Origin: a phage
Length of the DNA stretch: 64,000 nucleotides
Strand: one strand, 5' to 3'
Sequence record: PZ445517.1
Shown: positions 3,879 to 30,968 of the stretch, in pieces
Layout of the letters: every line of letters begins with the position of its first letter
Numbering within the stretch: position 1 is the first letter of the stretch
Translations under genes and position numbers: made by a program
Notes under the pieces: model-generated
The model's input: the letters and a program-made list of their open reading frames with translations, nothing else
Databases searched by the model: none
What the model was told of the DNA's origin: nothing

Positions 3879-3879
3879 A

Positions 3880-6109: not shown

Positions 6110-6110
<1 letters not shown>

Positions 6111-6358: not shown

Positions 6359-6783
6359 TGCTTCTGATCCCTGAAACTCATGAATTAGTTCTCGAGAATG
6401 TCGAAGCACTTATTCCTGAAGCACAGGGTCGCTTTGACGAATTGTCTTCTGCTTTAAATAAAGACGATATAAATACAATTGTCGAGAATATGCTTGATGA
6501 TGAAACTGATTTAGCAGTTGCATTAGCTTCTATTAATGAAAATATGCCGTTAAATGAATTCATTGTTAAGCATGTTTCAGCCCGTGGTGAAATTACACGT
6601 ACTAAAGACCGCAAAACACGCGAACGTAATGCATTTCAAACCACTGGGCTGTCTAAAGCAAAACGTAGACAAATTGCTCGCAAAGCTACCAAAACGAAGA
6701 TTGCCAATCCAGCAGGTCAATCTCGTGCTCAGCGTAAGCGTAAAAAAGCTCTTAAACGCCGTAAAGCATTAGGATTAAGCTAA
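6358..6783 (+). CDS. 68: prohead core protein, gp68 type
   Basis: 141-aa ORF; start overlaps gene 67 stop; basic C-terminus; synteny. Confidence 0.85.
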
Positions 6784-7421: not shown

Positions 7422-7424
7422 ATA
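7417..7424 (+). promoter_or_regulatory. late promoter (TATAAATA) for gene 22
   Basis: Exact TATAAATA overlapping the gene 21 stop codon. Confidence 0.55.
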
Positions 7425-7451
7425 TTATTATCTAAACAACAGGACTACAAA

Positions 7452-8261: not shown

Positions 8262-8279
8262 TTTTAAAGGTTAACACAA

Positions 8280-9845: not shown

Positions 9846-9860
9846 TCTTTGACGATTTAA

Positions 9861-9876
9861 GGGACCTTCGGGTCCC
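9861..9876 (+). terminator. rho-independent terminator after gene 23
   Basis: GGGACC-ttcg-GGTCCC followed by a T-rich run (TTTAGTTGTTTTTA). Confidence 0.65.
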
Positions 9877-9893
9877 TTTAGTTGTTTTTATGG

Positions 9894-9901
9894 TATAAAT
9901 A
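9894..9901 (+). promoter_or_regulatory. late promoter (TATAAATA) for gene 24
   Basis: Exact TATAAATA between the gene 23 terminator and the gene 24 ATG. Confidence 0.6.
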
Positions 9902-9928
9902 AATCATATAAACCAAAAGGAAAGCGCA

Positions 9929-11212
9929 ATGGCTAAAATCAACGAACTTCTGCGCGAATCAACCACAACGAATAGCAACTCAATCGGTCGCCCAAATCTC
10001 GTTGCTTTGACTCGCGCTACCACTAAATTAATATATTCTGACATTGTAGCAACGCAAAGAACTAATCAACCTGTTGCTGCTTTTTATGGTATTAAATACC
10101 TTAACCCAGATAACGAATTTACGTTTAAAACTGGTGCTACTTACGCTGGCGAAGCTGGATATGTAGACCGAGAACAAATCACAGAATTAACAGAAGAGTC
10201 TAAATTAACTCTCAATAAAGGCGATTTATTCAAATACAATAATATCGTTTATAAAGTATTAGAAGATACACCATTTGCTACCATTGAAGAAAGCGATTTA
10301 GAATTAGCTCTTCAGATTGCAATTGTTCTTTTAAAGGTTCGTCTATTTTCTGATGCAGCGTCAACGAGCAAATTTGAAAGCTCTGATAGCGAAATTGCGG
10401 ATGCTAGATTCCAGATTAATAAATGGCAAACTGCAGTTAAATCTCGTAAACTTAAAACTGGCATCACAGTTGAATTGGCACAAGATTTAGAAGCAAATGG
10501 ATTCGATGCTCCTAATTTCTTGGAAGATTTGCTTGCAACTGAAATGGCAGATGAAATTAATAAAGATATTCTACAGTCTTTGATTACAGTATCAAAACGC
10601 TATAAAGTTACAGGAATTACTGATACCGGATTCATTGATTTGAGTTATGCATCTGCACCTGAAGCTGGTCGTTCATTATACCGAATGGTGTGTGAAATGG
10701 TTTCACATATCCAGAAAGAATCAACTTATACAGCAACGTTCTGTGTTGCTTCAGCTCGTGCCGCTGCGATTCTTGCTGCATCAGGTTGGTTAAAACATAA
10801 ACCAGAAGATGATAAATATCTTTCACAAAATGCCTACGGGTTCTTAGCTAATGGTTTACCGCTTTATTGCGATACTAACAGCCCATTAGATTATGTAATC
10901 GTTGGTGTGGTAGAAAATATTGGCGAAAAAGAAATTGTTGGATCAATTTTCTATGCTCCGTATACAGAAGGTCTTGACTTAGATGACCCTGAACATGTAG
11001 GTGCATTTAAAGTTGTAGTTGATCCAGAAAGTTTGCAGCCATCTATCGGTTTATTAGTTAGATATGCTTTATCTGCAAATCCTTATACTGTAGCAAAAGA
11101 TGAAAAAGAAGCAAGAATAATTGATGGTGGAGACATGGATAAAATGGCGGGTCGTTCAGATTTGTCTGTTTTATTAGGTGTTAAGCTACCAAAAATTATC
11201 GTTGATGAATAA
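9929..11212 (+). CDS. 24: capsid vertex protein, gp24 type
   Basis: 427-aa ORF, gp23 paralogue in length and position; late promoter upstream. Confidence 0.92.
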   Translation: MAKINELLRESTTTNSNSIGRPNLVALTRATTKLIYSDIVATQRTNQPVAAFYGIKYLNPDNEFTFKTGATYAGEAGYVDREQITELTEESKLTLNKGDLFKYNNIVYKVLEDTPFATIEESDLELALQIAIVLLKVRLFSDAASTSKFESSDSEIADARFQINKWQTAVKSRKLKTGITVELAQDLEANGFDAPNFLEDLLATEMADEINKDILQSLITVSKRYKVTGITDTGFIDLSYASAPEAGRSLYRMVCEMVSHIQKESTYTATFCVASARAAAILAASGWLKHKPEDDKYLSQNAYGFLANGLPLYCDTNSPLDYVIVGVVENIGEKEIVGSIFYAPYTEGLDLDDPEHVGAFKVVVDPESLQPSIGLLVRYALSANPYTVAKDEKEARIIDGGDMDKMAGRSDLSVLLGVKLPKIIVDE

Positions 11213-11218
11213 AACAAA

Positions 11219-11234
11219 GGGACCGAAAGGTCCC
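11219..11234. terminator. bidirectional terminator between gene 24 and rnlB
   Basis: GGGACC-gaaa-GGTCCC with T-runs on both sides, between convergent genes. Confidence 0.65.
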
Positions 11235-11241
11235 TTTTTAT

Positions 11242-12246
11242 TTAACTTACCAATTCAATCCAAGCCGGACGAAGTACATCTTGTACCATTTTAACTAATT
11301 CCTTCTTAACCAAAGAAGGATTATCCGCTTGAGTTAGAGTAATACCTTCACGAGAAGTTTCTTCCAAAATATCTTGAACAGTTAGTCCCATCACCTTTCC
11401 AAAATCCTTTGGACCAATTTCGCCAATTTTAGAAATAACGTTATTTACTCGGTTCAGTGTAACGTAACAAGCTAAAATTCCCACCAATTTGTTATCAGCT
11501 TCTGACAGTTCAACTTTAGCTTTAATAGGCTTATCAGACTTTTTCTTTTCGCTAAATTTAGAGTTCTTGCATTTAATAGCTACACGATTGCCATTAGGCA
11601 TCCAAGAAGGATAACAAGGTTTCAATACATATCCTTCAGCAGTAAATACTTCGCCTTTTGCTTCGGCATTCCAAACACATTTATTTGCATCAACTAATCC
11701 AGCATGGTCTACTGTAAAATTATAATCTTGGACGACAGAATCTAAATCATTTGGCAATTTAATAAGCTCTTCAAATTTACCGCGACCTAAAAGTGGAGCC
11801 ATTTTAAATTTAAATGTATTACAGAATGATTCCATCATATAATCGTCGACATAAGTCACATCACCACTTTCGGTAGTAACAATAATGTCAAATACATAAA
11901 AATCTTTATCACCATAATCGACATTCTTCTGAATGCCAGGTCCAGCGAATTCGCCGAAGACTTGATAAGATACAACTGCTGAAGTTTCCATAATATCTTG
12001 TACTGCTTTAATGGAATCAGCATAATTCTTTAAAATAATTTCATACCCAAAGAAATCTTCAGCAGGAAGAATCGGTCCAGTACGTTTAGCACAAGTTGCT
12101 TTATCGCGCTCAATAATCAACGAGAAATTTGTACCATGAATCTTTTCACGAGCTACCCATTCGCCGCCAGTCAATCCTAAACTATAAAGTTTTTCAATGA
12201 ATTTAGAATTGTAATGATTTTCAAGACTGCTATACTTTTTAAACAT
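11242..12246 (-). CDS. rnlB: RNA ligase 2 (Rnl2)
   Basis: 334-aa ORF, N-terminus [16 protein letters not shown]; nucleotidyltransferase lysine motif (EKIHGTN); matches T4 Rnl2 in length and sequence as recalled. Confidence 0.92.
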
Positions 12247-12255
12247 AATTAATCC

Positions 12256-12534
12256 TCAAAATGTAATTTCTAACCAATCACCATCACGCTGGTCACTATT
12301 GACTTTAAAGCTAAATCCTTCTTTTCTCAGCCAATCACCAATTTCTTCAGTAATCAATTTATCGCGAGCAGTGCAATAATAACTAAAATATGTTTTACCT
12401 TGTTCAGCTGCTTTATTAGCAAGTTCCGAAAAATCTTTAATAAAACACTCTAGCTTAAACTGTTTGCTTTTAAGTGCTTTTTCGCGTAATTGATTAGCAA
12501 AAGATTCATTTTCATAAAGATCATACTGTTCCAT
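12256..12534 (-). CDS. hypothetical small protein (position of T4 24.2)
   Basis: 92-aa ORF tightly packed between rnlB and hoc on the same strand. Confidence 0.6.
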   Translation of the reverse strand: MEQYDLYENESFANQLREKALKSKQFKLECFIKDFSELANKAAEQGKTYFSYYCTARDKLITEEIGDWLRKEGFSFKVNSDQRDGDWLEITF

Positions 12535-12736
12535 TTTTCACCTTCTTATTAATATGTCTTTTTCTATAGACAACTTTTTCTCGAGTCTCAAATTTATTCT
12601 TAGCAGTCATAGCTCGAGCCCATAATACAGCCACTTCCTTTGCCTGTAAGTTCAATTCACGAGCAATTTCAATGAATGACTTTCCAGACTCATGGAGTGT
12701 AAACACCACAACCTCAGTTCTCATAATCAATCTCAT
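12521..12736 (-). CDS. hypothetical small protein (position of T4 24.3)
   Basis: 71-aa ORF; may start at an internal Met; synteny. Confidence 0.55.
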   Translation of the reverse strand: MRLIMRTEVVVFTLHESGKSFIEIARELNLQAKEVAVLWARAMTAKNKFETREKVVYRKRHINKKVKNGTV

Positions 12737-12805
12737 GTTATCGAGTTGGTGCCATTATATACATCGTTTTCTGATTGTGTTTTGTGTGCTTTCAAAATGA
12801 AGAAA

Positions 12806-12819
12806 GGGGCCGAAGCCCC
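12806..12819 (-). terminator. hairpin after hoc (GGGGC-cgaag-CCCC)
   Basis: GC stem 5 nt downstream of the hoc stop on the minus strand. Confidence 0.45.
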
Positions 12820-12824
12820 TGAGA

Positions 12825-13955
12825 TTATGGATAGGTATAGATGATACCAGTTTCTAAAGCAGTTTTATGAATGATGTATCCATTACGCGATTCTTGAACA
12901 TCAACTTCTGGATAGTCTTTCATCATCTTCTGAAGAGTGTAACGATGCAAGTAGTACTTACTATCTGGATCGTCAGTTTTCCAATCTTTACCTTCTTCAG
13001 TCATTTTTTGGATTTCATCCATAACCCACCAACCGCACCAGATATAAGCTGAAGTACGATGTGGAAGAGGATGAACATAAGGCAATTCACCTTCTGGTTC
13101 CGGAGCAACTTTATCAGTCACTTGAACTTGACCTGTGGCTTTAACTGTTTTACTATCATAGTCAGTTGCTGTAACGACAGCAGTAACTTCAATAGTTTGA
13201 CTTCCAATAGATGAGGTATCAACAGTATATACGTTAGTTGACCCTTCCACAGGAGAAGAATCTTTCTTCCATGAGTAAGTAATTTGTGCTGCTTCAGGTG
13301 CGCCAGTAACATTAGCAGTAAATGTAGCCGAAGCATCTTGCTGAACATTAATAGAAGGAGGAGTCAATGTAACCTGTGGATTCATTGTCTTCTTATTAAC
13401 TGTCAATGATACTTCATTGGAAGTAACTTCCTTTTCATTATAATTTTCTGCAGTTACTTGAGCTACACACTTAATTTTTTTAACTCCGCTTGTAGTAGGA
13501 GTATAATTGAATGTAGCAGAAGTTGCTTCGCCCACAGGAGAACCGTCAACGTACCATTGATACGTAGCGGATGCGCCCGATGGCTGTGAAGCTAAGGCAG
13601 CAGTAAATTCAACGGCTGTTCCGATTACTCCTTCTGGAGGACTATTAGGAGTTACAGCTAAGGTAGTTGTCTGTGTCTTATTTTGAACTGTGATAGTTGT
13701 ACTAATTTCAGCTGTTTCAGCATCAGTATCTGGAACTGGGTTTGTTGCAACTACTTTAATAGTTTTTTGACCGGCAGGTCCTTTTAGTACATAACTAAAA
13801 GTTGCAGATGTTTCTTCCTGTGGAACATCATCTACAGTCCAAGCATATGTAATAGGTCCATCTCCAGTTTGACCACTGGGTGTAGCAGTAAACTGCTGAG
13901 TCTGATCTATAACTCCAGTAGGTGTTTTAGGAGTTATATCAACTGTAAAAGCCAT
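12825..13955 (-). CDS. hoc: highly immunogenic outer capsid protein Hoc (Ig-like domains)
   Basis: 376-aa ORF, T/S/V-rich repeated beta-strand modules, same length as T4 Hoc; upstream of inh. Confidence 0.9.
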   Translation of the reverse strand: MAFTVDITPKTPTGVIDQTQQFTATPSGQTGDGPITYAWTVDDVPQEETSATFSYVLKGPAGQKTIKVVATNPVPDTDAETAEISTTITVQNKTQTTTLAVTPNSPPEGVIGTAVEFTAALASQPSGASATYQWYVDGSPVGEATSATFNYTPTTSGVKKIKCVAQVTAENYNEKEVTSNEVSLTVNKKTMNPQVTLTPPSINVQQDASATFTANVTGAPEAAQITYSWKKDSSPVEGSTNVYTVDTSSIGSQTIEVTAVVTATDYDSKTVKATGQVQVTDKVAPEPEGELPYVHPLPHRTSAYIWCGWWVMDEIQKMTEEGKDWKTDDPDSKYYLHRYTLQKMMKDYPEVDVQESRNGYIIHKTALETGIIYTYP

Positions 13956-13964
13956 AAGTTATCC

Positions 13965-14645
13965 TTATTTTAATGTTACGAAAGAAGAATTACGTGTTTC
14001 ACGAATTAGAACTGATCCGTCACGATTAATGTAGTAAATTAAGCTAAATAAAGTTTGGTGTGCCGACGCGTGTTCAAAACTAGTTGGGTGAGATTTCCAA
14101 TCCGGAGTTTCAGCAATCCACTGGTAAATCCACCAAGGAACCGTGCAAAATCCTGGATTTTTTCCAATCAGCTGAAGATTCGGACTAAAGTTTTCCGGAA
14201 GAGTAAATACAGACGGCTTTTCAGATTCAATAATCTCAGCTACAGCCTGTTCGAATTTTTCTTCAACAAACGGAGTATCTTCAATTAAAACATCGGTATT
14301 TTCAGGAATTTTATCCGTTTCTACTACTTCAATTTTAATGTCAGATTTAACCGGAGAATCAATCAGAAGTGCTGCTTCTGGATTGACTTCTTCATCGTCA
14401 TATTTTAACCCTTCTGCAGCATCAGCAGCATCAATTAAGTCTTTAATAGATAACCCATCAGTCTCTGGCATAGGTTCACTAGCGAGCTTCTGGAGGGCTT
14501 CTTCAATATCAATAACGATATTATCAAAAGATTTATTCTTTTTGACCTTTATACCAAACTGTTCAGCATATTCAGCTAATTTAGCTTTAGCTTCTTTATT
14601 ATCATCAAGAGCCTTCAGCTCTGCAATATAATCTTTATCTATCAT
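13965..14645 (-). CDS. inh: inhibitor of prohead protease, Inh type
   Basis: 226-aa ORF in the position and with the length of T4 inh. Confidence 0.8.
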   Translation of the reverse strand: MIDKDYIAELKALDDNKEAKAKLAEYAEQFGIKVKKNKSFDNIVIDIEEALQKLASEPMPETDGLSIKDLIDAADAAEGLKYDDEEVNPEAALLIDSPVKSDIKIEVVETDKIPENTDVLIEDTPFVEEKFEQAVAEIIESEKPSVFTLPENFSPNLQLIGKNPGFCTVPWWIYQWIAETPDWKSHPTSFEHASAHQTLFSLIYYINRDGSVLIRETRNSSFVTLK

Positions 14646-14658
14646 AATATTTCCTCAG

Positions 14659-14666
14659 TATAAATA
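14659..14666 (+). promoter_or_regulatory. late promoter (TATAAATA) for uvsW
   Basis: Exact TATAAATA in the 50-nt inh/uvsW divergent spacer. Confidence 0.55.
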
Positions 14667-14695
14667 TAGATATATTTATTACATGGTATTTAGAC

Positions 14696-16207
14696 ATGAC
14701 TGACATTAAAGTACATTTTTATGATTTTAGTCACGTGAGAATTGATTGTGAAGAAAGTACATTTCATGAACTCCGTGATTTCTTTAGCTTTGAAGCTGAT
14801 GGGTATCGTTTTAATCCGAAATACAAATATGGTCACTGGGATGGACGAATCCGTCTTTTAGATTATAATCGCCTTCTTCCATTCGGCTTAGTCGGGCAAA
14901 TTAAAAAGTTCTGCGATAACTTTGGCTATAAAGCCTGGATTGACCCGCAAATTAACGAAAAAGAAGAATTATCAAGAAAAGATTTTGATGAATGGCTTTC
15001 TAAATTAGAAATCTATTCAGGAAATAAAAGAATTGAACCGCATTGGTATCAAAAAGATGCAGTGTTCGAAGGATTAGTTAATCGTCGCAGAATTCTTAAT
15101 CTTCCAACATCCGCAGGTAAATCTTTAATTCAAGCTTTGCTTGCACGTTATTATTTGGAAAATTATGAAGGTAAAATTCTTATCATTGTTCCAACAACTG
15201 CTCTGACAACTCAGATGGCTGATGACTTCGTTGACTATCGTTTATTCAGTCATGCAATGATAAAGAAAATCGGCGGCGGAGCATCAAAAGATGATAAATA
15301 TAAAAATGATGCACCGGTAATTGTTGGTACATGGCAAACTGTAGTAAAACAACCAAAAGAATGGTTTTCCCAATTTGGTATGATGATGAATGATGAATGC
15401 CATCTTGCTACAGGAAAAAGTATTTCATCTATCATATCAGGATTAAATAACTGTATGTTTAAATTTGGTCTATCAGGTTCATTACGTGATGGCAAAGCTA
15501 ATATCATGCAGTATGTTGGAATGTTTGGTGAAATATTTAAGCCAGTAACGACTTCTAAATTAATGGAAGATGGACAAGTAACTGAGCTAAAAATTAATAG
15601 TATTTTTCTTCGCTATCCAGATGAGTTCACTACTAAATTAAAGGGAAAAACTTATCAAGAAGAAATAAAAATTATTACTGGGCTTAGTAAAAGAAATAAA
15701 TGGATCGCTAAATTAGCTATTAAGCTTGCGCAAAAAGATGAAAACGCTTTTGTCATGTTTAAACATGTATCACATGGTAAAGCTATTTTCGATTTAATTA
15801 AAAATGAATACGATAAAGTTTATTACGTATCAGGGGAAGTTGATACCGAAACCCGCAATATAATGAAAACCTTAGCTGAAAATGGTAAAGGAATAATTAT
15901 AGTAGCTAGTTATGGTGTATTTTCTACTGGTATTTCAGTTAAAAATCTGCATCACGTTGTTTTAGCGCACGGTGTTAAATCAAAAATCATTGTATTACAA
16001 ACAATCGGTCGTGTATTACGTAAGCATGGTTCTAAGACAATAGCAACAGTCTGGGACCTCATAGATGATTGTGGTGTTAAGCCAAAATCTGCTAATACTA
16101 AAAAGAAATATGTTCATTTGAACTATCTTTTAAAACACGGCATTGATCGTATTCAGCGCTACGCAGATGAAAAATTTAATTACGTAATGAAAACAGTTAA
16201 TTTATAA
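14696..16207 (+). CDS. uvsW: UvsW SF2 helicase (recombination/repair)
   Basis: 503-aa ORF with Walker A (PTSAGKS) and DECH box (MMNDECHLA); late promoter upstream. Confidence 0.92.
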   Translation: MTDIKVHFYDFSHVRIDCEESTFHELRDFFSFEADGYRFNPKYKYGHWDGRIRLLDYNRLLPFGLVGQIKKFCDNFGYKAWIDPQINEKEELSRKDFDEWLSKLEIYSGNKRIEPHWYQKDAVFEGLVNRRRILNLPTSAGKSLIQALLARYYLENYEGKILIIVPTTALTTQMADDFVDYRLFSHAMIKKIGGGASKDDKYKNDAPVIVGTWQTVVKQPKEWFSQFGMMMNDECHLATGKSISSIISGLNNCMFKFGLSGSLRDGKANIMQYVGMFGEIFKPVTTSKLMEDGQVTELKINSIFLRYPDEFTTKLKGKTYQEEIKIITGLSKRNKWIAKLAIKLAQKDENAFVMFKHVSHGKAIFDLIKNEYDKVYYVSGEVDTETRNIMKTLAENGKGIIIVASYGVFSTGISVKNLHHVVLAHGVKSKIIVLQTIGRVLRKHGSKTIATVWDLIDDCGVKPKSANTKKKYVHLNYLLKHGIDRIQRYADEKFNYVMKTVNL

Positions 16208-16232
16208 GGGCTTCGGCCCTTTGGAGAAAAAG

Positions 16233-16463
16233 ATGTTACTAGAATTTAAACAATTTCTTTATGAAGCTTCTATTGATGAATTTATGGGTAAAATTGCCTC
16301 TTGTCAAACATTAGAAGGTTTAGAAGAACTTGAAGCTTATTATAAGAAAAGAGTTAAAGAAACTGAATTAAAAGATACTGATGACATCTCAGTCAGAGAT
16401 GCTTTGGCAGGAAAAAGAGCTGAATTAGAAGATTCAGACGATGAAGTAGAAGAAAGCTTTTAA
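16233..16463 (+). CDS. uvsW.1: UvsW.1 small acidic protein
   Basis: ORF track starts at a TTG (16221); the ATG at 16233 after a GGAGA site gives 76 aa, the length of T4 UvsW.1. Confidence 0.8.
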   Translation: MLLEFKQFLYEASIDEFMGKIASCQTLEGLEELEAYYKKRVKETELKDTDDISVRDALAGKRAELEDSDDEVEESF

Positions 16464-16518
16464 ATTAAAAAAGGCCCAACCAAAAAGGAAGGGCCAAAAC
16501 TATAGACTAAAGGTCACA

Positions 16519-16686
16519 CTATAGCAAAAGTTGTGTTTCATTTAATTGTTCTTCAGAACTTTCTGAAACTGGTAGTTCTTTAATGTAATTATAGCAAGGC
16601 CCAGGATGTACAGGACCTTTGTCTGTTTCAACAACCAATGCAGAATCGATTGGAGTTTTACAGACAACACAAATCTTATCTGACAT
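16519..16686 (-). CDS. hypothetical 55-aa cysteine-containing small protein (below ORF-track cutoff)
   Basis: Read by hand: MSDKICVVCKTPIDSALVVETDKGPVHPGPCYNYIKELPVSESSEEQLNETQLLL; ATG preceded by GAGGAG about 6 nt upstream; lies between uvsW.1 and the uvsY-proximal ORFs. Confidence 0.55.
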   Translation of the reverse strand: MSDKICVVCKTPIDSALVVETDKGPVHPGPCYNYIKELPVSESSEEQLNETQLLL

Positions 16687-16714
16687 GATTGTCTCCTCTA
16701 AATTATATATCTAT

Positions 16715-16939
16715 TTATATAACTCTCATATGCATATCAATACCCATATCTTTAGAATAAAAATATTCATCAAGATATCCGGCAAATTTTCCTTTAATAT
16801 AAAGTACATCTTCACCGCATGGGTGGTCGGCCAGGATACGAATATCCTGACGCTTGAGATTATACTTTTTCATTAAGAATTGAATTTCCGTTTCGAATTC
16901 TTCTTCATAATTAAAAGCATCATCAATGCTATATTTCAT
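16715..16939 (-). CDS. hypothetical small protein downstream of uvsY
   Basis: 74-aa ORF directly after uvsY, start/stop coupled to it. Confidence 0.65.
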   Translation of the reverse strand: MKYSIDDAFNYEEEFETEIQFLMKKYNLKRQDIRILADHPCGEDVLYIKGKFAGYLDEYFYSKDMGIDMHMRVI

Positions 16940-17352
16940 TATTTTCCAGCCTCAAATGCTCGCATGTCTTGAATGTGCTTAATAGCAAATCCACGTGATT
17001 TAATAGCATCAAGAGCTCCGCTACAGAAATCCAATAAAATCCCCCAATACTGTAACGAGGTATCAACCTTTAAAACATCCTTATCAGCTGATAGAACTGT
17101 TTTCATTTCTGATTTCTCGTAACGATCCATACTAAATTCATCACCATCTCCTCGTCCCGAGTAGTAGTCTAATCTAGCTTTAAGAGCAACTTTTTTCTGT
17201 GCATCAATTCTAAGCATTTCCTTTTTAATACTTGAATGCTTATTAAGCCATTTACTATATAACATCACATTATTAGCTGCTTCATACTGCAATTTAGTCG
17301 AATCTATAAACACATCTTTCTTCAATTCTTCTTGAAGATCTTCTAATCTCAT
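16939..17352 (-). CDS. uvsY: UvsY recombination mediator
   Basis: 137-aa ORF, same length as T4 UvsY; synteny between uvsW and gene 25. Confidence 0.9.
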   Translation of the reverse strand: MRLEDLQEELKKDVFIDSTKLQYEAANNVMLYSKWLNKHSSIKKEMLRIDAQKKVALKARLDYYSGRGDGDEFSMDRYEKSEMKTVLSADKDVLKVDTSLQYWGILLDFCSGALDAIKSRGFAIKHIQDMRAFEAGK

Positions 17353-17418
17353 ATTGTTCTCTATTCAATTGTTATTGGATGGACTTAGATTCATTATACC
17401 ACGTTTATACGTGAAGCA

Positions 17419-17817
17419 TTATACTCTATTACTGGAAGCCAGTTGCAGTTTTATCTGCTCAATATCATCAGGATTATCGATGACCGAAAAGCGTATTTCT
17501 ACTATCAGAGTATAATCATCATAAACCGGTATTACATTAACTGCTAATTTATCAATACGTGGCTCATAGTTTCTTACTGCGCTTTCGATGTTACGCTCAA
17601 CCGTATCAGCAGTAAGAGGAGTCATATTTTCAAAAAGCTGATCTGATAAATCACATCCAAATTCAGGGTCAAACGGTCTTGAACCTTTTCTTGTTGTAAT
17701 AATTCCCAAAAGACTGTTTTTAATTGACCTTAATCCAAGTGATCTGGAAACGTCTTTGTTCCAATCCATTTTCATTTCCGGGTCAATGTCAGAATAAAGC
17801 TTATTAATATTTGACAT
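17419..17817 (-). CDS. 25: baseplate wedge protein gp25 (lysozyme-like fold)
   Basis: 132-aa ORF; length and synteny with gene 26. Confidence 0.9.
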   Translation of the reverse strand: MSNINKLYSDIDPEMKMDWNKDVSRSLGLRSIKNSLLGIITTRKGSRPFDPEFGCDLSDQLFENMTPLTADTVERNIESAVRNYEPRIDKLAVNVIPVYDDYTLIVEIRFSVIDNPDDIEQIKLQLASSNRV

Positions 17818-18443
17818 TATAGTAACTCAAAGAACTCTTTGAGGCCTCTTATTACGTGAGCATGGGTTTTTCCACACTCTGGACACTTAATTGGAACAGC
17901 CAAATAAACAGTAGGCTTTAAAAGCATATCTTTTATAGCTACAATATCTGACTCTGTGATGATAGAATATAAATCTTCCAGTTCTTTTTCATTTAAGTCT
18001 TCAACTGGAATGCTTTCCCCGTTAGCATGAATCGTTTCTATACATGATACTATCATGTGGGCTATATTTTTATCATCAAAAATTTTAGGGTATCGGAATT
18101 TAATTTTAATGTCACCCAGTGTATACCAGAGGTCTTCTGGTGCATCTATTTGTGTATGTAATAGATTTATATGGGTTGGTATTTCAGTTCCACAGGTGCA
18201 CTTCCAGGAGTTTTCGTGATTAACTTCACCGAGAGAATGTGCCCATAAATGAATCAACAATAGTTCTGATTCTTGGCGGTTTAAATCTTTTGCATTTGTG
18301 CAGTCTTTGATTAGCTTTTTAACAATTACTTCTACGGAACCATTATTTTTGGCAGTAATAAGTTCTAGATATTCTTTAAGCGTGAATGCGCGACAATTGA
18401 TTATTTTAGAACCAACTCTCACATCAAATTTGTATTCATACAT
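17817..18443 (-). CDS. 26: baseplate hub protein gp26
   Basis: 208-aa ORF; divergent late promoter pair shared with gene 51. Confidence 0.88.
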
Positions 18444-18464
18444 ATTTAGCTCCTTTATTTATCA

Positions 18465-18472
18465 TATTTATA
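18465..18472 (-). promoter_or_regulatory. late promoter (TATAAATA on minus strand) for genes 26-25
   Basis: Minus-strand TATAAATA overlapping the plus-strand one by 4 nt. Confidence 0.6.
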
Positions 18473-18476
18473 AATA
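18469..18476 (+). promoter_or_regulatory. late promoter (TATAAATA) for gene 51
   Basis: Part of the palindrome ATATTTATAAATAG in the 26/51 divergent spacer. Confidence 0.6.
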
Positions 18477-24733: not shown

Positions 24734-24737
24734 CAAC

Positions 24738-24755
24738 GGGGACCGAAAGGTCCCC
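24738..24755. terminator. bidirectional terminator between gene 54 and the alt-side operon
   Basis: GGGGACC-gaaa-GGTCCCC followed by ATATTTTTATTT; between convergent genes; same core as 11219..11234. Confidence 0.65.
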
Positions 24756-24761
24756 ATATTT

Positions 24762-25052
24762 TTATTTGCGGAATGAAATGAAAGCAGCAACTGAAGCAAC
24801 TAAACTGTCTTCAATATAAACTTCAATTTTTACCGGAGCTTCTGACTCAAATTTACCTGTTACTACACCCTGAAAAATACTTTCAGTCTGTTCTGGCTTT
24901 GAAAAATTTTCAGAAGGAAAAATTCCGAACTTTTTATCTGTTCCAAAAATTTTGATAAATTCATCATAAACTGCTTCATTAAAAGCATTATCAGCAGGAA
25001 TAACGCCTTCAACTACAAGTTCTTGACCCAAAAAGCGCAAAGAAGATTTCAT
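24762..25052 (-). CDS. hypothetical protein downstream of the alt genes
   Basis: 96-aa ORF with GAGG ribosome-binding site and an early-promoter-like element upstream. Confidence 0.7.
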   Translation of the reverse strand: MKSSLRFLGQELVVEGVIPADNAFNEAVYDEFIKIFGTDKKFGIFPSENFSKPEQTESIFQGVVTGKFESEAPVKIEVYIEDSLVASVAAFISFRK

Positions 25053-25057: not shown

Positions 25058-25105
25058 GTTCCTCATGTTATGTCAGTAAGACTACTATAACACAACATGA
25101 GGAAC
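25058..25105. repeat. 48-nt unit with 12-bp inverted repeat arms (GTTCCTCATGTT ... AACATGAGGAAC), copy 1
   Basis: Near-identical unit recurs at 40930..40976; arms flank the -10 region of the early-promoter-like element. Confidence 0.7.
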
Positions 25106-25113
25106 TTGTAAAC
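25084..25113 (-). promoter_or_regulatory. early-promoter-like element (GTTTAC, ~18-nt spacer, TATAGT) upstream of the 96-aa ORF
   Basis: Minus strand reads GTTTAC aagttcctcatgttgtg TTATAGT, then leader with GAGG and ATG; nearly identical copy at 40955..40984. Confidence 0.5.
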
Positions 25114-27170
25114 TACATTTTGAACTTTTTAGACATTCCGTTAATGTTAACCAAAGAAGCTAAGATTTGAGAAACTTCGTTTTCCTCTTCTTTTGATTCT
25201 TCTACAAGGAATTGATTAAATCCAGCCATTGGACGAACTTCACCAGTTTCCATTAAATGGTCGCCATCATATACTGATTCTTCTAATTGTTCAGAAGGAG
25301 GAACGATTGTACCTTCGATTAGATACTTGTTATAAGCAGTTTCTTTCATAAAGTACGTACTTACTTTATTAATCTTCAGTAAAATTCCACGCGGTAGAAT
25401 AACTTCAGCTTCTGATGGAAATCCTGTTAAATGACCTGGAACGATAACTTTGATTCGCTCAGCTCCTTTAATTACCATACCCACGCTAGTTTCAGCATTT
25501 TCATTAGCGTATGTAGAATGACTACCCATATGCATCAAATCTTCTGCATCAACAGAACCTTCTCCTTCGCCAGAAAATACTGCGCCGGAATCATCTAGAG
25601 CCATATAGTTTTTACCATGCTCACCGAAGATATTTGGTTTAAGCGATGTGGATACGAAGTTCTTGAAATAAAACATTTTATTTTCAATGTTATGACGCAA
25701 AGTTTTAAAGGTAACTTCTTGTCCACGGTAAAGCGTAGTTCCTGGAGGAAGAACTGAACCTTTAGCGAATGCAGAATCCAACGTCTCGATGTGCTTAATA
25801 GCACGTTCCATATATTCTTCACGGGTAGAATCTGGTTTACCCAAAAGGAACGAGTTCATTTCAACATATGAATCTGCACAATAATCTTCAATTACATCAG
25901 ATTCAGCTTGAGTTAATCCTTTTGGAGTTACTTCAGTACTTGCATATTCATATGCCTGGGCAGCAGATTCATTAATCAATTTATAAATGCCATTCATGAC
26001 AAATTGAATAATAGCTGTCTTTTCATCTGGCGTGGCTTTAGAACCTTTAACCAAATCATTGATAATTTTCTTAATAACATCAAAGCTATTAGAAATATTA
26101 ATATCAGCAAGATCACTTAAAATTTTATCAGTTTTATAATCAAAGAATTCTTTATTCTTTAAATATTCTTGAGAACCTTGATATGTTATATCGCTCTGCA
26201 ACTTGATGGATGGATCACGTAAACGTGCATGGGCTAATGCAATATGATTTCGGAAGTTTTCTAGTTCATAATCGCTAGATTTAAAACGAGAAGCACTCCT
26301 CATACCACCGATAGCTCCTTTGCTGAAGTTTGAACCAATCTGAATAACGCCAGAGTTCATTGGTCCTTCTGCTTTATATACCGGAACTTTAGATTCAAAC
26401 TCTTGATATTTCTTGGCAGCGAAGCTATCACCCTGAAGTGAAGCATCAACAGTAGAATATTGAGCTTGTGCTGCTAATCGACGACTAATTTTAGTTTTCT
26501 GAATAACAGCTTGGTCAGTACGTTTATCATTTTCTAAAGCAATAGAAGCAGCAACAGCGACAGCTTTAGGAACAGCATTACCTGTTTTAACGTCTACATA
26601 AACATCACCAACCTTTGATTCAACTTTTGTGAATAACTCAGTTGAAATAGGAGGTACGCCTGGAATGTCTTCTAAATTGGCATTTTTACGGTAAACCATA
26701 ATATATGCATACTTTTTATCATAGTCCCAGATTTCCTTTAAAAGAACATATCGACCTGCTCCTTTAGTACGTACTAAACGGTCAGCAATAACTTGCATTT
26801 GACGAGCAGCGCCATTTGTTTTACTTTTTAGTACGCGGAATAGGCATGCATCAATTTTATACTGTTTCATTGTTTGAAGAGCAGTATCAAAAACAGCATT
26901 AATGACGCCAATTGGATTTCCACCCAAGTTTCTAAGCTTAACCAGCGATAATTTCTCGTTGACACCTATCATTACGATATGCATCATTTTATCGCCTAGT
27001 TTAACGTTTTTATTTGTATCACCACCAGAGGTGTATGTACAAAATCTAAATCCAGGAAGCACGCTTTCTTCGCCGGCTTGGATAGCAAAAATTTGAGGTA
27101 TTTTATGCTTAGGATTTAAGTTAACAACCGGCGCCGAAGCGCCGTCAAATAATTCTGTAATAAGTTCCAT
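25113..27170 (-). CDS. Alt-like ADP-ribosyltransferase, second tandem paralogue
   Basis: 685-aa ORF; N-terminal ~250 aa closely parallel to the adjacent Alt ORF; C-terminal R-S-E ART signature (YRGQ ... FVSTSL ... EAEVILPRG). Confidence 0.85.
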   Translation of the reverse strand: MELITELFDGASAPVVNLNPKHKIPQIFAIQAGEESVLPGFRFCTYTSGGDTNKNVKLGDKMMHIVMIGVNEKLSLVKLRNLGGNPIGVINAVFDTALQTMKQYKIDACLFRVLKSKTNGAARQMQVIADRLVRTKGAGRYVLLKEIWDYDKKYAYIMVYRKNANLEDIPGVPPISTELFTKVESKVGDVYVDVKTGNAVPKAVAVAASIALENDKRTDQAVIQKTKISRRLAAQAQYSTVDASLQGDSFAAKKYQEFESKVPVYKAEGPMNSGVIQIGSNFSKGAIGGMRSASRFKSSDYELENFRNHIALAHARLRDPSIKLQSDITYQGSQEYLKNKEFFDYKTDKILSDLADINISNSFDVIKKIINDLVKGSKATPDEKTAIIQFVMNGIYKLINESAAQAYEYASTEVTPKGLTQAESDVIEDYCADSYVEMNSFLLGKPDSTREEYMERAIKHIETLDSAFAKGSVLPPGTTLYRGQEVTFKTLRHNIENKMFYFKNFVSTSLKPNIFGEHGKNYMALDDSGAVFSGEGEGSVDAEDLMHMGSHSTYANENAETSVGMVIKGAERIKVIVPGHLTGFPSEAEVILPRGILLKINKVSTYFMKETAYNKYLIEGTIVPPSEQLEESVYDGDHLMETGEVRPMAGFNQFLVEESKEEENEVSQILASLVNINGMSKKFKM

Positions 27171-27173
27171 GAT

Positions 27174-29270
27174 TTATCCTTGAACGAACTTGTAAGGCAT
27201 GTTTGTAATATCTATGCAAGACGCAATAATTCCAAGAGATGATTCTACTTTCTGTTTAACATTTGATGAAACAAATGATGCAAAGTCAACTTTGTCTTCT
27301 ATTTCAATATCACCTGTCATTGCAACTACTTCGCCGGTTTCCATTAAACGGTCACCGTCATAAATTACCGATTCGGTGAGTTCTTCTGTGGTCATAACTT
27401 CAGCTTGAATGAGTTTTGTATTATTAGACGTGATTCCGTCATTATTAGAAGCATCAGTTATTTTATTAACTTTGACCATCAATCCACGCGGTAGAATAAC
27501 TTCAGCTTCTGTTGCTATTCCGAGACTTCCTGGATATACAACATTGACTTTATGAGCTCCATCAATTGCCCATCCTATTTGAACTTTAACGTATTCAGGA
27601 TTTTCTTTATACGCTCTTATTTCGTTTGGATTAATAGTTATTCCTTCTTCATTTTTATCAACTGTTAATTCATTGCGAGCTTCTGGTTCTAAAAGACCAA
27701 TACCAGCATGTGTAATTCCAAAACGTCCAAAAATGATAGGAGTTAAAGAAGTAGATACAAAATTTCTGAAATAGAACACTTTATTTTTAACTAGTGCTTC
27801 GTATATAGGAGCAGTCATACTTTGAGCACGATAAACTGTAATGCCTTCTGGTATACGGTCACCATTTTCAAAAGCTGAATCTAAATTATTTATAGCAGAT
27901 TCAATTTCTTTTTCACTCATTATATCATATCGTTCTGGATTGTAACGACCTAAAAGAAGATTATTGATGTCTGTATATCCTGAACCACAATACTCTCTAA
28001 TGCCGCGCTTTTGTGATGGAGTATATTTAGAACTATCACGGGCAATAGTAATATCAATCATTGGACCTGCACCAATTCCGGAAAAGCTATAAATCATTCG
28101 TTTGAGGAATTTAGTTTTTGCTGCATTCCAGGCATTTTTAGTTATTTCTCCCCAGACTTCATCTGGCTGCCCTTTACGAGTTTTATTATGTTTATCAAGC
28201 CAATTATCTTTATATTCTTCAAATAATTGATTAACAGCTGCTGCGTATTTCTCTAAACATTTTATTGAAGTAGTTGGTTCATTTTTAATCGCATTAAGAA
28301 TTACATCTTTAATTTTTTCTGAAACTTCACCGACTTGACTCATTGGAAAGAATTTATAATCATAGTGAAGTTCATCTGCCGTTCCTTCAGCAATAATTTT
28401 TGCTGCCTTAGTTTTAGAAGCTAATGAATTAATTCCAAGCTTCATTTCTTCTGCTTCGGGAATTAAAGGTGCAGTAGCAGGTTTATTGAAATTAGCTGCG
28501 GTAGATTCATACTTCTGGAATAATTCACTTTCAAATCTAGAAGATTCCAATGACTGACTTTGTGCAATTGCTCTACGGGAAATTTTAACTTTAACGATTA
28601 CGGCTTGGTCAGAACGTTTATCGTTTTCTTGTGCAATAGATGCAGCAATTGCCTCATTTTTGGTTACTTGAGCTCCAGTATCTTTATTAATATAAACATC
28701 ACCGACCTTCGATTCAACTTTAGTAAAGAGCTCGGTACTAATTTCCGGAACTCCTGGAATGTCTTCTAGTGATACATTTTTGCGATGTATAAGAATATAT
28801 GCATACTTTTTATCATAATCCCAGAGTTCCTTAAGAAGGACGTATCTGCCACCTGAACGACTACGGATAAGTCTATCAGCAATAACTTGAATTTGTCGAG
28901 CTTGGCCAGCAGTTTTAGACTTAAGAATACGAAGCATACAAGCATCAATTTTATACTGACGCATTGTTTGCATTGCAACAGTAAAAACTGAATTGATATA
29001 ATTAATTGGGCTTGGACCAAGACCTTTTAATTTAGCAATTGAACCTTTAGCAGTTAATGTAAAAGGAACAATATGCATCATTTTGTCGCCCATTTTTAAA
29101 TCGCGATTAGTATCACCTCCAGATGTATAGGTACATAAACGAAAGCCTGGTTGTTCAATTGCATCATCAACATGAACTGAAAAAATTTGTGGTATTTTCT
29201 TCTTTGGATTTAAGTTTGTAATCGGAAGAGTAGTATCTTCGTCAAATAATTCTGTAATGAGTTCCATCAT
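27174..29270 (-). CDS. alt: Alt ADP-ribosyltransferase (virion-packaged RNA polymerase modifier)
   Basis: 698-aa ORF; R-S-E ART signature (YRAQ ... FVSTSL ... EAEVILPRG); minus-strand TATAAATA late promoter just upstream. Confidence 0.85.
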   Translation of the reverse strand: MMELITELFDEDTTLPITNLNPKKKIPQIFSVHVDDAIEQPGFRLCTYTSGGDTNRDLKMGDKMMHIVPFTLTAKGSIAKLKGLGPSPINYINSVFTVAMQTMRQYKIDACMLRILKSKTAGQARQIQVIADRLIRSRSGGRYVLLKELWDYDKKYAYILIHRKNVSLEDIPGVPEISTELFTKVESKVGDVYINKDTGAQVTKNEAIAASIAQENDKRSDQAVIVKVKISRRAIAQSQSLESSRFESELFQKYESTAANFNKPATAPLIPEAEEMKLGINSLASKTKAAKIIAEGTADELHYDYKFFPMSQVGEVSEKIKDVILNAIKNEPTTSIKCLEKYAAAVNQLFEEYKDNWLDKHNKTRKGQPDEVWGEITKNAWNAAKTKFLKRMIYSFSGIGAGPMIDITIARDSSKYTPSQKRGIREYCGSGYTDINNLLLGRYNPERYDIMSEKEIESAINNLDSAFENGDRIPEGITVYRAQSMTAPIYEALVKNKVFYFRNFVSTSLTPIIFGRFGITHAGIGLLEPEARNELTVDKNEEGITINPNEIRAYKENPEYVKVQIGWAIDGAHKVNVVYPGSLGIATEAEVILPRGLMVKVNKITDASNNDGITSNNTKLIQAEVMTTEELTESVIYDGDRLMETGEVVAMTGDIEIEDKVDFASFVSSNVKQKVESSLGIIASCIDITNMPYKFVQG

Positions 29271-29290
29271 ATCCTCTCTAGTGTTTATTC

Positions 29291-29298
29291 TATTTATA
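29291..29298 (-). promoter_or_regulatory. late promoter (TATAAATA on minus strand) for alt
   Basis: Exact match about 20 nt upstream of the alt start; Alt is a virion-packaged late protein. Confidence 0.55.
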
Positions 29299-29303: not shown

Positions 29304-29321
29304 AAAGGCCCGAAGGCCTTT
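29304..29321 (-). terminator. hairpin between ligase-side ORF and alt (AAAGGCC-cgaa-GGCCTTT)
   Basis: Stem-loop overlapping the stop of the 62-aa ORF, immediately upstream of the alt late promoter. Confidence 0.45.
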
Positions 29322-29508
29322 AATAATCTATTGGTAAGAGAGTACGATATATTTCAAACTTTGGACCTTTTTCATAGGCATCAAAAGTTTCTGTGAATTT
29401 ATTATAAGCATATGCATCTATAAATTCAATCATGATTTGTGATACAGAAGTAGAAACATCTCCACCTTCTTTTTGAGCCACGACAATTGTTTCTAAGTAA
29501 GCTTTCAT
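29320..29508 (-). CDS. hypothetical small protein
   Basis: 62-aa ORF between ligase and alt; stop overlaps a hairpin. Confidence 0.55.
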   Translation of the reverse strand: MKAYLETIVVAQKEGGDVSTSVSQIMIEFIDAYAYNKFTETFDAYEKGPKFEIYRTLLPIDY

Positions 29509-30968
29509 AAACCAGTTACCTCATGAAAATCACCAAATACATCTTCGAATGTATTAGCTTTAGTTTTATCTTCACGTAAACGAATCGCAATCGGAAGAAA
29601 TAATTTAACGTAATCAGTGCGGCCATCAGATTTTAACCAACCGTTGCATTCGCACTCTAGAATTTTTCCAATATAATAATTTTGGTTTTCCATAATGCGA
29701 GTACGGTCAAGTTCATGCGATTTTACACCGGCTTTATCTTTTAAGCCTGAACCAGCATTTACTTTAATTTTTCCACACTCTGATTCAAGAATAAATCCAC
29801 CCGCTTTAGTAGGGTCTTTACGGTGAGGATAAATTCCTACAATTTTTAAATCAACATCAATTACTTCTTTAAATTTATAGAGATTTTTTGAACGAGCATT
29901 TTCCCATAATCCATCGATATTTTTGAGAATAATACCTTCAAGACCTTGGTCAATATATTTTTTATAAATTACCTTAGCTTCATTTAGGTTATTTACTACC
30001 TGGTTTTCAATTAAAATTACTTTATCATAGCCTGATGTCATTTGTTCTAGTTTAGAAAAACGTACATCATACTTTAAACGAAATGCAGGAAGACCATATA
30101 TTTCTACTAATGGAACATAGTCCCAGACCTGAAACTTCATGCATTGAGCTTCTTTTTCGGAAATGGTTCCCTTTAAAGATTTATTAGCGATTCCATTAGA
30201 AGCAGTACGTGATTCAGCTACTTCGGCGAATTCTTTAGCTTTACTAATTTCAGGATAAGCATCAAAAAGAAAATCTAGGCCTTCTGGTTCCTTTTCAACT
30301 TGCTCATGGTATACCAATTCGCCATCAATTAACACACCTTCTGGATGAATCTGGCGGGCTTCAGCGGTCATTTTGATTAACTCTTCCTTAAGAAGGTCTA
30401 ATCCTAGATATTCATTACCAGCTCGTGATAAAAGACGAACATCATCTAATTCATCACCTCTAACTTCAGCAAAACACCGAGCTCCATCAGCTTTTAACTG
30501 GGCAAAGGCTGGAAATTTAATATTCTTATTAATGCCTTTTTCATCATAAGAACTTGCCAGCATTTGAGGTTGTTCAGGAATTAAACCTGGCCAAACTTTG
30601 TTTGCAATAGATACTGAAGCACCACATTCAAGGTCTCGCATCATCACTCGACGCAAAACTTCAACATCATCTTTTTTACCATCGGTGATGTATCCAGTTA
30701 ATTCCTCAATTGCCGCATTTCCAGTCAATTTCCGAGTAGCTAACGTGAATTCAATGAAGTCAAGCATATCGGTAAGAGTCAACATTCCAAAACTCTGGGT
30801 AGCAATACCAGGTTTAGGCCATTTCTTGATATAATACTGTAACCCACGAGAATAAGTCAGACGATATACTCGTTTAAGCAATTCATTATCTTTATTCTTT
30901 TCAAGAATTGCTTGCTTCTGTTTAGTTGAACCAATAGATGCTATTTCGTTCAGAATTTTAAGAATCAT
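29505..30968 (-). CDS. 30: ATP-dependent DNA ligase
   Basis: 487-aa ORF, N-terminus MILKILNEIASIGSTKQKQAILEKNKDNELLKRVYRLTYSRGLQYYI and KxDG adenylation motif (AQLKADGARCF); matches T4 DNA ligase. Confidence 0.95.
   Translation of the reverse strand: MILKILNEIASIGSTKQKQAILEKNKDNELLKRVYRLTYSRGLQYYIKKWPKPGIATQSFGMLTLTDMLDFIEFTLATRKLTGNAAIEELTGYITDGKKDDVEVLRRVMMRDLECGASVSIANKVWPGLIPEQPQMLASSYDEKGINKNIKFPAFAQLKADGARCFAEVRGDELDDVRLLSRAGNEYLGLDLLKEELIKMTAEARQIHPEGVLIDGELVYHEQVEKEPEGLDFLFDAYPEISKAKEFAEVAESRTASNGIANKSLKGTISEKEAQCMKFQVWDYVPLVEIYGLPAFRLKYDVRFSKLEQMTSGYDKVILIENQVVNNLNEAKVIYKKYIDQGLEGIILKNIDGLWENARSKNLYKFKEVIDVDLKIVGIYPHRKDPTKAGGFILESECGKIKVNAGSGLKDKAGVKSHELDRTRIMENQNYYIGKILECECNGWLKSDGRTDYVKLFLPIAIRLREDKTKANTFEDVFGDFHEVTGL

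Follow-up and report, generated by a model that had tools for sequence, protein, structure and literature searches.

Two tandem, diverged Alt-like ADP-ribosyltransferase genes, alt and alt.-2, at the alt locus of a Tequatrovirus genome

The window analysed here, a stretch of 64,000 nucleotides of phage DNA (sequence record PZ445517.1), carries on its minus strand two adjacent genes, alt and alt.-2, for which we have computed the gene structure, motifs, predicted fold, selection, phylogeny and recombination products. The initial annotation of this DNA had recognized two adjacent open reading frames (ORFs) of approximately 690 amino acids and had read them as tandem, diverged Alt-like ADP-ribosyltransferase paralogues. 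Both points stand. The two minus-strand ORFs encode 685 and 698/697 residues, and the homology of the two proteins spans their entire length (BLASTP, 41% identity, E = 2e-163). The ADP-ribosyltransferase (ART) family Pfam PF03496 (ADPrib_exo_Tox) is matched by Alt.-2 with 70.6 bits and by Alt with 129.2 bits, against a cut-off of 23.4. The family phrog_802, 'Alt-like RNA polymerase ADP-ribosyltransferase', runs end to end through both, spanning residues 1-685 of Alt.-2 (E = 9.5e-255) and residues 1-696 of Alt (E = 8.3e-272); no NCBIfam model matches Alt or Alt.-2. The longest ORF form of alt is 27174-29270 (698 residues). The second ATG, at 29267, is favoured as its start because of the Shine-Dalgarno spacing, and yields a protein of 697 residues with the N-terminus MELITE, as used in RefSeq annotations. 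The two genes and their parts are as follows.

27174-29267, minus strand: alt, 697 residues from the second ATG, positional orthologue of T4 alt
28554-29267, minus strand: alt, N-domain, residues 1-238
28026-28553, minus strand: alt, middle helical region, residues 239-414
27372-28025, minus strand: alt, ART domain, residues ~415-632
27174-27371, minus strand: alt, C-terminal tail, residues 633-697
25113-27170, minus strand: alt.-2, 685 residues, second Alt paralogue, intact ORF
26457-27170, minus strand: alt.-2, N-domain, residues 1-238
25917-26456, minus strand: alt.-2, middle helical region, residues 239-418
25278-25916, minus strand: alt.-2, ART domain, residues 419-631
25113-25277, minus strand: alt.-2, C-terminal tail, residues 632-685

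The N-domain assignment (PF26846, with PF03496) was taken from the precomputed annotation of the closest homologues of the window proteins. The similarity of the two copies differs greatly among these parts. Their N-domains (residues 1-238) are 67.5-68% identical in protein and 68.6% identical in DNA, and the earlier description of the N-terminal ~250 residues as near-identical was an overstatement. The divergence of the catalytic C-terminal domains, also described earlier, is real (the ART domains are 34-37% identical) and is not confined there: the middle helical region (residues ~239-418) is the least similar of all, with approximately 11% identity in a seven-sequence alignment and 27 of 167 columns in a pairwise alignment. 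The C-terminal tails are approximately 40% identical. The longest exact DNA word common to alt and alt.-2 is 29 nt long and is located in the ART region.

The R-S-E signature is retained in both proteins, as had been noticed at first reading, and neither copy has a broken triad. YR, FVSTS and EAEVILPRG are found in both, the EAEVILPRG block being identical. An alignment of 19 family members shows no variation in the Arg, S-T-S and E-x-E columns. The catalytic residues of Alt are R480, S505-T-S507 and E587-A-E589; those of Alt.-2 are R482 (25725-25727), S507 (25650-25652; S507-T-S509), E587 (25410-25412) and E589 (25404-25406). The E-x-E form goes with arginine-specific ADP-ribosyltransferases. 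Judged by profile and motifs, the classification of Alt and Alt.-2 as Alt-type R-S-E mono-ADP-ribosyltransferase paralogues is correct.

The ART fold was assigned from a predicted structure for Alt.-2, and from sequence alone for the upstream Alt. The AlphaFold model of Alt.-2 has a mean predicted local distance difference test score (pLDDT) of 76.6, with block means of ~67-93 over the ART domain; the helical region before the ART core is predicted confidently (block means mostly >80). Foldseek matched this model to Vis, C3bot, CDTa, VIP2 and CPILE-a (iota-like) with E values from 4e-8 to 4e-5 and a probability of 1.0. By sequence, no relative of Alt.-2 was found in the PDB at E<=0.01, and Alt gave weak CDTa and iota matches; where the upstream Alt is aligned with CDTa, its Arg and E-x-E fall on the catalytic ones of the toxin.

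In T4 Alt, the substitution E577A (numbering of the paper) abolishes ADP-ribosylation (PMC11404850). T4 Alt contains a single E-x-E, at 574-576 (E574/E576) in the 682-residue numbering. The published E577A hits no Glu in this 682-residue protein (L003 1501-3549) and fits numbering from an upstream in-frame ATG (ATGATGGAA), which conflicts with the ITE-6/LTE-619 numbering of the proteomics paper.

The 4.9-kb region around the gene pair is 100% identical to LR597657 (LR597657.1), 'Escherichia phage T4_ev240', and 97-98% identical to the slur phages, RB32, RB33, T2 and T6; on these matches the window is Tequatrovirus DNA. The alt.-2-specific 1.69 kb is present at >=90% identity (at least 90%) in 402 phage records, and the window-type alt middle region in 319. 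Approximately 400 phage records carry the pair, T2, T6 and RB32 among them, and the alt/alt.-2 pair is the majority state of Tequatrovirus genomes, normal in T2/T6/RB32-type phages. The RB32 RefSeq record contains two large genes named alt and alt.-2, both 'Alt-like RNA polymerase ADP-ribosyltransferase', and the RefSeq label for the pair is 'Alt-like RNA polymerase ADP-ribosyltransferase (x2)'. In 2006, Nolan et al. (PMC1524935) described T4 alt.-1 and alt.-2 as paralogous duplications of alt, with full-length duplicates in other T4-like phages, and a 2026 paper (PMC13600099) reported for a Tequatrovirus a pair of Alt-like paralogues with 43% identity and suggested functional divergence. The gene pair and its paralogy are therefore already known, being annotated in RefSeq and noted in both papers, and the finding as first stated is not new. 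As a discovery, this normal, annotated arrangement carries little weight.

The state of T4 itself is different. There, alt is followed by two small ORFs, alt.-1 (61 residues) and alt.-2 (67 residues), which match residues 1-56 and 62-116 of the window Alt.-2 at 96% identity and lie at the same position. The match of T4 DNA to the window then jumps from 26823 to 25132, so that window positions 25133-26822 (~1.69 kb) are deleted. The deletion removes alt.-2 from residue ~117 nearly to the stop codon, and a frameshift follows residue ~56. On this comparison, T4 keeps only a frameshifted 116-residue stub of alt.-2 plus the deletion of approximately 1.7 kb, and the T4-type deletion junction is found in 91 records. 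The downstream copy of the window matches only the T4 fragments alt.-1/alt.-2, and T4 has no intact, characterised orthologue of it. The pair is consequently not made up of two ordinary orthologues of characterised T4 genes; the upstream copy alone corresponds to one of these, as a positional orthologue of alt with a mosaic sequence. Nearly all of the biochemistry of phage 'alteration' has been done in T4, a lineage that lacks the second enzyme.

The window Alt is 70% identical to T4 Alt overall, with 100% identity in the N-domain, 34% in the middle region, 65-67% in the ART domain and 92% in the tail. In DNA, the first ~270 codons of the two alt genes are 95% identical, the next ~430 nt (window 28032-28460, in the middle region) show no similarity, and the remainder is 80% identical. 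The upstream alt gene is thus mosaic among T-even phages, a middle region without T4 DNA similarity lying between similar flanks. A third variant of the alt middle region is visible in P0016 and P0107. Although it is named 'T4_ev240', LR597657.1 has the T2/T6/RB32 arrangement at this locus (the other alt middle region and an intact alt.-2), unlike T4; this phage is either not T4 proper or else a recombinant.

By every available sequence test, alt.-2 is a working gene under strong purifying selection. Compared with RB32, PST, ECML-134 and two metagenomic relatives, the middle, ART and tail parts of alt.-2 give pairwise ratios of non-synonymous to synonymous substitution rates (dN/dS) of 0.00-0.12, mostly 0.03-0.08. 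Changes in the ART domain are, for example, 33 synonymous versus 7 non-synonymous, or 18 versus 2. The possibility that alt.-2 is a pseudogene or a chance ORF is ruled out by its intact ORF, by the dN/dS of 0.03-0.08 and by the invariant catalytic residues.

Both copies were compared domain by domain among the Tequatrovirus of the window, Dhakavirus UP19, Moonvirus CF1 and Biquartavirus avDM5, with the following protein identities.

ART domains of the Alt.-2 type, from Tequatrovirus, Dhakavirus and Moonvirus: 45-55%, forming one clade
ART domains of the Alt type, from Tequatrovirus and Dhakavirus: 55-65%, forming another clade
ART domain, Alt type versus Alt.-2 type: 34-42%
N-domains of the Tequatrovirus pair: 67%
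N-domains of the Dhakavirus pair: 67%
N-domains of the Biquartavirus pair: 56%
N-domains of orthologues, Tequatrovirus versus Dhakavirus: 42-47%

The first copy of CF1 has a third ART type. On these groupings, the duplication predates the split of these genera. The N-domain tree clusters the copies by genome, which is the signature of N-domains that evolve in concert within each genome. The locus is a clean, small case of domain-level concerted evolution, in which the delivery module is homogenised and the catalytic modules are kept apart.

Some phages carry a single hybrid gene instead of the pair. The proteins P0003-P0006 begin with an Alt-type N-terminus and continue as Alt.-2 type, with breakpoints near residues 54, 107, 195 and 222, and their metagenomic contigs contain a single gene between alt.1 and alt.-3. 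The loci of such genes are listed here.

L007 1742-3802: single hybrid gene of Yersinia phage PST, breakpoint at residue ~105
L008 2042-4102: single hybrid gene of ECML-134, breakpoint at residue ~160
L005 and L006, 4001-6061: single hybrid genes

Over the four loci L005-L008, the breakpoints lie at residues ~54, ~105, ~160 and ~222. The isolate SCS4 has the same single hybrid gene. PST, ECML-134 and SCS4 have retained the Alt.-2 ART domain and lost that of Alt, which is the mirror image of T4. These genes are products of recombination between the two N-domains, with removal of the Alt ART domain. That P0003-P0006 are assembly chimeras is ruled out, because exact DNA words common to the two genes do not exceed 29 nt, and the one of that length lies in the ART region; the complete genomes of PST, ECML-134 and SCS4, all three isolates, show the single-gene architecture as well. 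Such natural hybrids (PST, ECML-134) and the T4 deletion could act as ready-made genetic controls.

The signals that precede the two genes are as follows.

29304-29321, minus strand: GC-rich hairpin AAAGGCC-TTCG-GGCCTTT, overlapping the alt.1 stop codon (direct sequence reading)
29291-29298, minus strand: TATAAATA, T4 late-promoter consensus, before alt (sequence reading and motif count)
29273-29276, minus strand: Shine-Dalgarno sequence of alt, GAGG, 5 nt ahead of the ATG at 29267 (sequence reading)
27177-27181, minus strand: Shine-Dalgarno sequence AAGGA for alt.-2, within the last alt codons (sequence reading)

A late promoter had been proposed in front of the upstream copy, and the comparison bears this out: TATAAATA lies 21 nt upstream of the first alt ATG, directly after the GC-rich hairpin, and is kept in T4, RB32 and PST, as is the GAGG ribosome-binding site that follows; the counterpart of TATAAATA in UP19 is CATAAATA. 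The window contains 18 copies of TATAAATA versus 8.3 expected by chance, and none of 100 shuffles reached 18. The hairpin at 29304-29321, between alt.1 and alt, is likely a terminator or an RNA-stabilising hairpin; it is invariant in T4, RB32, PST and Dhakavirus UP19, and is absent from the list of a simple terminator scan. The stop codon of alt (27174-27176) is 3 nt from the ATG of alt.-2, and the terminator scan found no terminator-like site between the two genes on the minus strand. Because no coding-strand terminator separates them, the simplest reading places alt.-2 second on the late alt transcript, and the two genes are probably co-transcribed from the TATAAATA promoter at 29291-29298. 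A second TATAAATA at 27887-27894 (minus strand), inside alt and approximately 715 nt upstream of alt.-2, was considered as a late promoter of alt.-2 itself and is probably coincidental. It lies in coding sequence (A-I-N-N) and is limited to the T2/RB32-type alt, with no counterpart in T4, PST, ECML-134 or UP19.

T4 Alt is a prohead-core protein with approximately 40 copies per head, from which gp21 trims 6 residues at ITE-6 and 63 residues at LTE-619 (PMC5694885, PMC9026906); it is kept in the mature head and ejected. In the 682-residue T4 Alt we found the cleavage motifs at 4-6 and 617-619. The window Alt has corresponding gp21 motifs, ITE at 4-6 and LTE at 630-632, and the columns that these occupy in the alignment hold ITE (4-6) and LEE (629-631) of Alt.-2. 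E6 and E631 of Alt.-2 are invariant across the family, and the following S632 is nearly invariant. Beyond the second site, the paralogues share a conserved tail (YDGDxLMETGEV ... KF), which in Alt.-2 is predicted at low confidence (pLDDT <50), as expected of a propeptide. Mainly from these conserved motifs, we suggest that Alt.-2 is handled like Alt in packaging and trimming.

Taken together, the best explanation of the locus is in our judgement a pair of functional late genes encoding two head-delivered ADP-ribosyltransferases, most likely with different host substrates, a reading that we hold to be probable with an appreciable margin of doubt. Late co-transcription, packaging, cleavage, injection, enzyme activity and the difference in targets are what we infer within it. 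Each protein would consist of five parts: a 6-residue N-terminal propeptide ending at the gp21 site I-T-E; an alpha/beta N-domain of ~230 residues (Pfam PF26846); a helical region of ~180 residues, unrelated between Alt and Alt.-2; a C3/VIP2-type mono-ADP-ribosyltransferase domain with Arg, S-T-S and E-x-E; and a C-terminal propeptide of ~55-65 residues after the L-x-E gp21 site. By analogy with T4 Alt, both proteins would be built into the prohead core, trimmed by gp21 at both ends and kept in the mature head. They would then be ejected with the DNA and, within seconds of infection, would ADP-ribosylate arginines of host proteins from NAD+, with Alt and Alt.-2 preferring different substrates. 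The shared N-domain serves as a recombination site. Exchange at this site leads to the loss or reshuffling of ART modules, and the Alt(N)::Alt.-2(C) hybrids found in PST and ECML-134 have arisen in this way; the loss of alt.-2 from T4 is a separate deletion of ~1.7 kb. What is added here to the known pair, namely the Alt.-2 gp21 sites, purifying selection, the age of the duplication, concerted evolution of the N-domain, the hybrid and deletion alleles and a clade-specific residue of the ADP-ribosylating turn-turn (ARTT) loop, makes this reading the most likely one without making the feature novel. Alt.-2 is likely injected by ~400 sequenced coliphages, therapeutic candidates among them.

Different preferred substrates are the most likely outcome because the helical region and the active-site loops differ between the lineages. 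The residue three places ahead of the first catalytic Glu is a conserved Phe or Tyr in the Alt.-2 clade and Ile, Gln or Pro in the Alt clade; CDTa is also aromatic at that ARTT position ('GYAGEYE'). This aromatic residue of the ARTT turn is the one with which C3-like and binary toxins contact the substrate. The loop after S-T-S is hypervariable in length and sequence across the family. Separate ART lineages under purifying selection, an unrelated helical region and the ARTT residue make different targets plausible. The suggestion made at first reading, of two injected effectors that differ in their targets, agrees with the gp21 motifs conserved at both ends, the purifying selection and the ARTT-loop difference. 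As both proteins keep E-x-E, the difference would lie in the proteins modified, not in the chemistry.

Several points weigh against this interpretation. The ARTT-loop argument is carried over from the structural biology of toxins. T4 Alt is known to be promiscuous, being reported to modify many host proteins in a paper citing Depping 2005, and the target sets of Alt and Alt.-2 could overlap strongly. Phages with either single ART are viable; T4, without alt.-2, grows normally, and alt itself is non-essential. Since T4 has lost alt.-2 and yet grows normally, the role of Alt.-2 is dispensable on laboratory hosts. ADP-ribosylation of subunit alpha in RNA polymerase ('alteration') is established for T4 Alt only, and our literature searches found no characterisation of Alt.-2 (as made, packaged, cleaved, injected or active) and no virion proteome mentioning a second Alt copy. 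The Alt.-2-type copy of Moonvirus CF1 (L009 3001-5123) is annotated as two overlapping ORFs of 392 and 315 residues, and some Alt.-2 cluster representatives are shorter (P0007, P0008 and P0010, with 624, 528 and 415 residues). The split CF1 copy and the short representatives reflect either occasional gene decay or sequencing frameshifts, and alt.-2 seems to decay in some lineages.

A strong overlap of targets would fit a pair of redundant isoenzymes, with Alt.-2 packaged and active on essentially the same host proteins (RNA polymerase alpha and others) and kept for dosage or robustness, for example towards host variation. The two proteins do share their catalytic motifs and an identical EAEVILPRG block, the breadth of T4 Alt described in the paper that cites Depping 2005 points the same way, and phages with the Alt ART only (T4) or the Alt.-2 ART only (PST, ECML-134) are viable. 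Even so, two ART lineages that have remained separate across at least three genera at 34-42% identity, each strongly purified, would be unusual for pure redundancy, and the middle region is unrelated (~11%) and the ARTT-loop residue consistently clade-specific. We regard redundancy as unlikely, though it is the alternative to be taken most seriously.

Alternatively, Alt.-2 might not be an injected effector at all, and might have a late intracellular role or be mainly a structural part of the prohead core, its activity after injection being irrelevant. Its gene belongs to a late transcription unit, published work presents Alt both as an enzyme and as a core protein (PMC11404850), and the co-evolution of N-domains within a genome could reflect binding to genome-specific core proteins. 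Yet Alt.-2 has both gp21 motifs at the positions used in T4 Alt, which is itself retained in the head and ejected; its invariant catalytic residues and ART dN/dS of 0.03-0.08 indicate that enzyme function itself is selected; and heads are assembled in T4, PST and ECML-134 with only one member of the pair. This alternative we consider improbable. The frameshifted stub and 1.7-kb deletion of T4, the split CF1 copy and the truncated cluster representatives might suggest that Alt.-2 is a decaying, functionless duplicate heading to the T4 state, but this is strongly disfavoured, and in our view hardly credible, given the intact 685-residue ORF, the dN/dS of 0.03-0.08 with up to 33 synonymous versus 7 non-synonymous changes in the ART domain, the invariant catalytic residues, the 402 records with alt.-2 versus 91 with the T4-type junction, the orthologues kept in Dhakavirus and Moonvirus, and the retention by PST and ECML-134 of the Alt.-2 rather than the Alt ART domain.

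The preferred reading, of two head-delivered enzymes with different substrates, has a bolder form that we put forward tentatively, as a possibility with somewhat less than an even chance: Alt.-2 may be a second head-delivered arginine ADP-ribosyltransferase with its own host targets, possibly a defence or stress protein (compare Alt acting on MazF), and the N-domain may be a reusable delivery module. If this were true, concerted N-domain evolution would let T-even phages swap, lose and recombine ART 'warheads', and the alt locus would be a small effector-shuffling cassette. T4 would then be a natural alt.-2 knockout, which could explain some of the differences between T4 and T2/T6 in sensitivity to host defences.

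Modelled alone, the N-domain gives an alpha/beta fold with a pLDDT of 84 and a predicted template modelling score (pTM) of 0.82. Foldseek against predicted viral structures (BFVD) recovered Alt homologues and, with E values from 1e-8 to 1e-4, large uncharacterised proteins of other myoviruses, some of which carry zeta-toxin, deaminase or ParB annotations. When 1.84 billion representatives were searched with a sequence profile, only 73 proteins came back, mostly of 598-712 residues. Among the matches of at least 563 residues that were scanned with Pfam, five of five have an ART domain; four shorter or atypical ones have no Pfam domain. The idea of the N-domain as a widespread module fused to non-ART effectors is unsupported by sequence in this search (73 proteins, five of five scanned with ART), and a general delivery module fused to varied effectors may be taken as a lead suggested by the structural matches, not as a result.

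Among known systems, T4 Alt is the closest. The upstream gene has the same position (alt.1 to alt.-3), hairpin, late promoter and ribosome-binding site, its protein has a 100% identical N-domain and the same ITE-6/LTE and R/STS/ExE motifs, and Alt.-2 shares the whole five-part plan and phrog_802. The window Alt differs in being 70% identical to T4 Alt, with a middle region lacking DNA similarity, and Alt.-2 differs in its unrelated middle region and in the ARTT aromatic residue that Alt lacks. The alt.-1/alt.-2 ORFs are broken-gene fragments in T4, whereas the window has the intact gene, and the full-length gene of RB32 is already named alt.-2. With the C3, VIP2, iota Ia, CDTa and Vis toxins, the phage proteins have in common the catalytic fold, the Arg, the S-T-S and the E-x-E, and the Alt.-2 clade also the ARTT aromatic residue. 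In contrast, these toxins are 12-19% identical to Alt.-2 and use delivery domains or a pore-forming B component, whereas the phage proteins have an N-domain, a helical region, protease-removed propeptides and a putative delivery from the phage head.

T4 ModA and ModB are likewise R-S-E ADP-ribosyltransferases; they come from the same group of phages and have host proteins as their substrates. They are small (~200 residues) early proteins without N-domain and gp21 propeptides, and the window proteins resemble them in the ART core only; according to published papers, ModA and ModB, unlike Alt, are not injected from the head. T4 IPI, IPII and IPIII and the MuF-fused effectors also combine a conserved delivery element with a variable effector and are packaged in the head and ejected with the DNA. 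The T4 internal proteins, however, have only a cleavable capsid-targeting sequence of 10-20 residues, and MuF is a domain different from the Alt N-domain (PF26846).

The neighbouring genes and signals are as follows.

29505-30968, minus strand: DNA ligase (gene 30), from the ORF list
29320-29508, minus strand: alt.1, 62 residues, upstream neighbour, overlapping the end of gene 30 (Pfam Phage_blade)
25084-25112, minus strand: Sigma-70/T4-early-type promoter TTTACA-17-TATAGT with extended TG, before alt.-3 and directly after the alt.-2 stop (promoter scan/sequence)
24762-25052, minus strand: alt.-3, 96 residues, DUF5498, downstream neighbour (Pfam PF17602, E = 1.4e-64; phrog_1739)
24736-24757, both strands: bidirectional terminator-like hairpin between the convergent alt.-3 and gp54 genes (terminator scan)

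Beyond alt.-3, the convergent baseplate/tail genes 54, 48 and 29 lie on the plus strand. The pair is in the locus of the Alt family, between gene 30/alt.1 and alt.-3/gene 54 and with a late promoter in front. The promoter at 25084-25112 suggests that alt.-3 is expressed from a promoter of its own, and its transcription may be separate from that of alt and alt.-2; alt.-3 (DUF5498) is apparently an early gene adjoining a late transcription unit. Most copies of TATAAATA in the window are found at 1829-18476, mainly on the plus strand, that is, in the first 19 kb, and this cluster is consistent with a block of late genes there. In the Aeromonas phage avDM5 (L010 558-1517), a third ORF, of 319 residues, is located upstream of two full-length Alt-like genes; it matches the ART domain only (22-29% identity) and has no N-domain.

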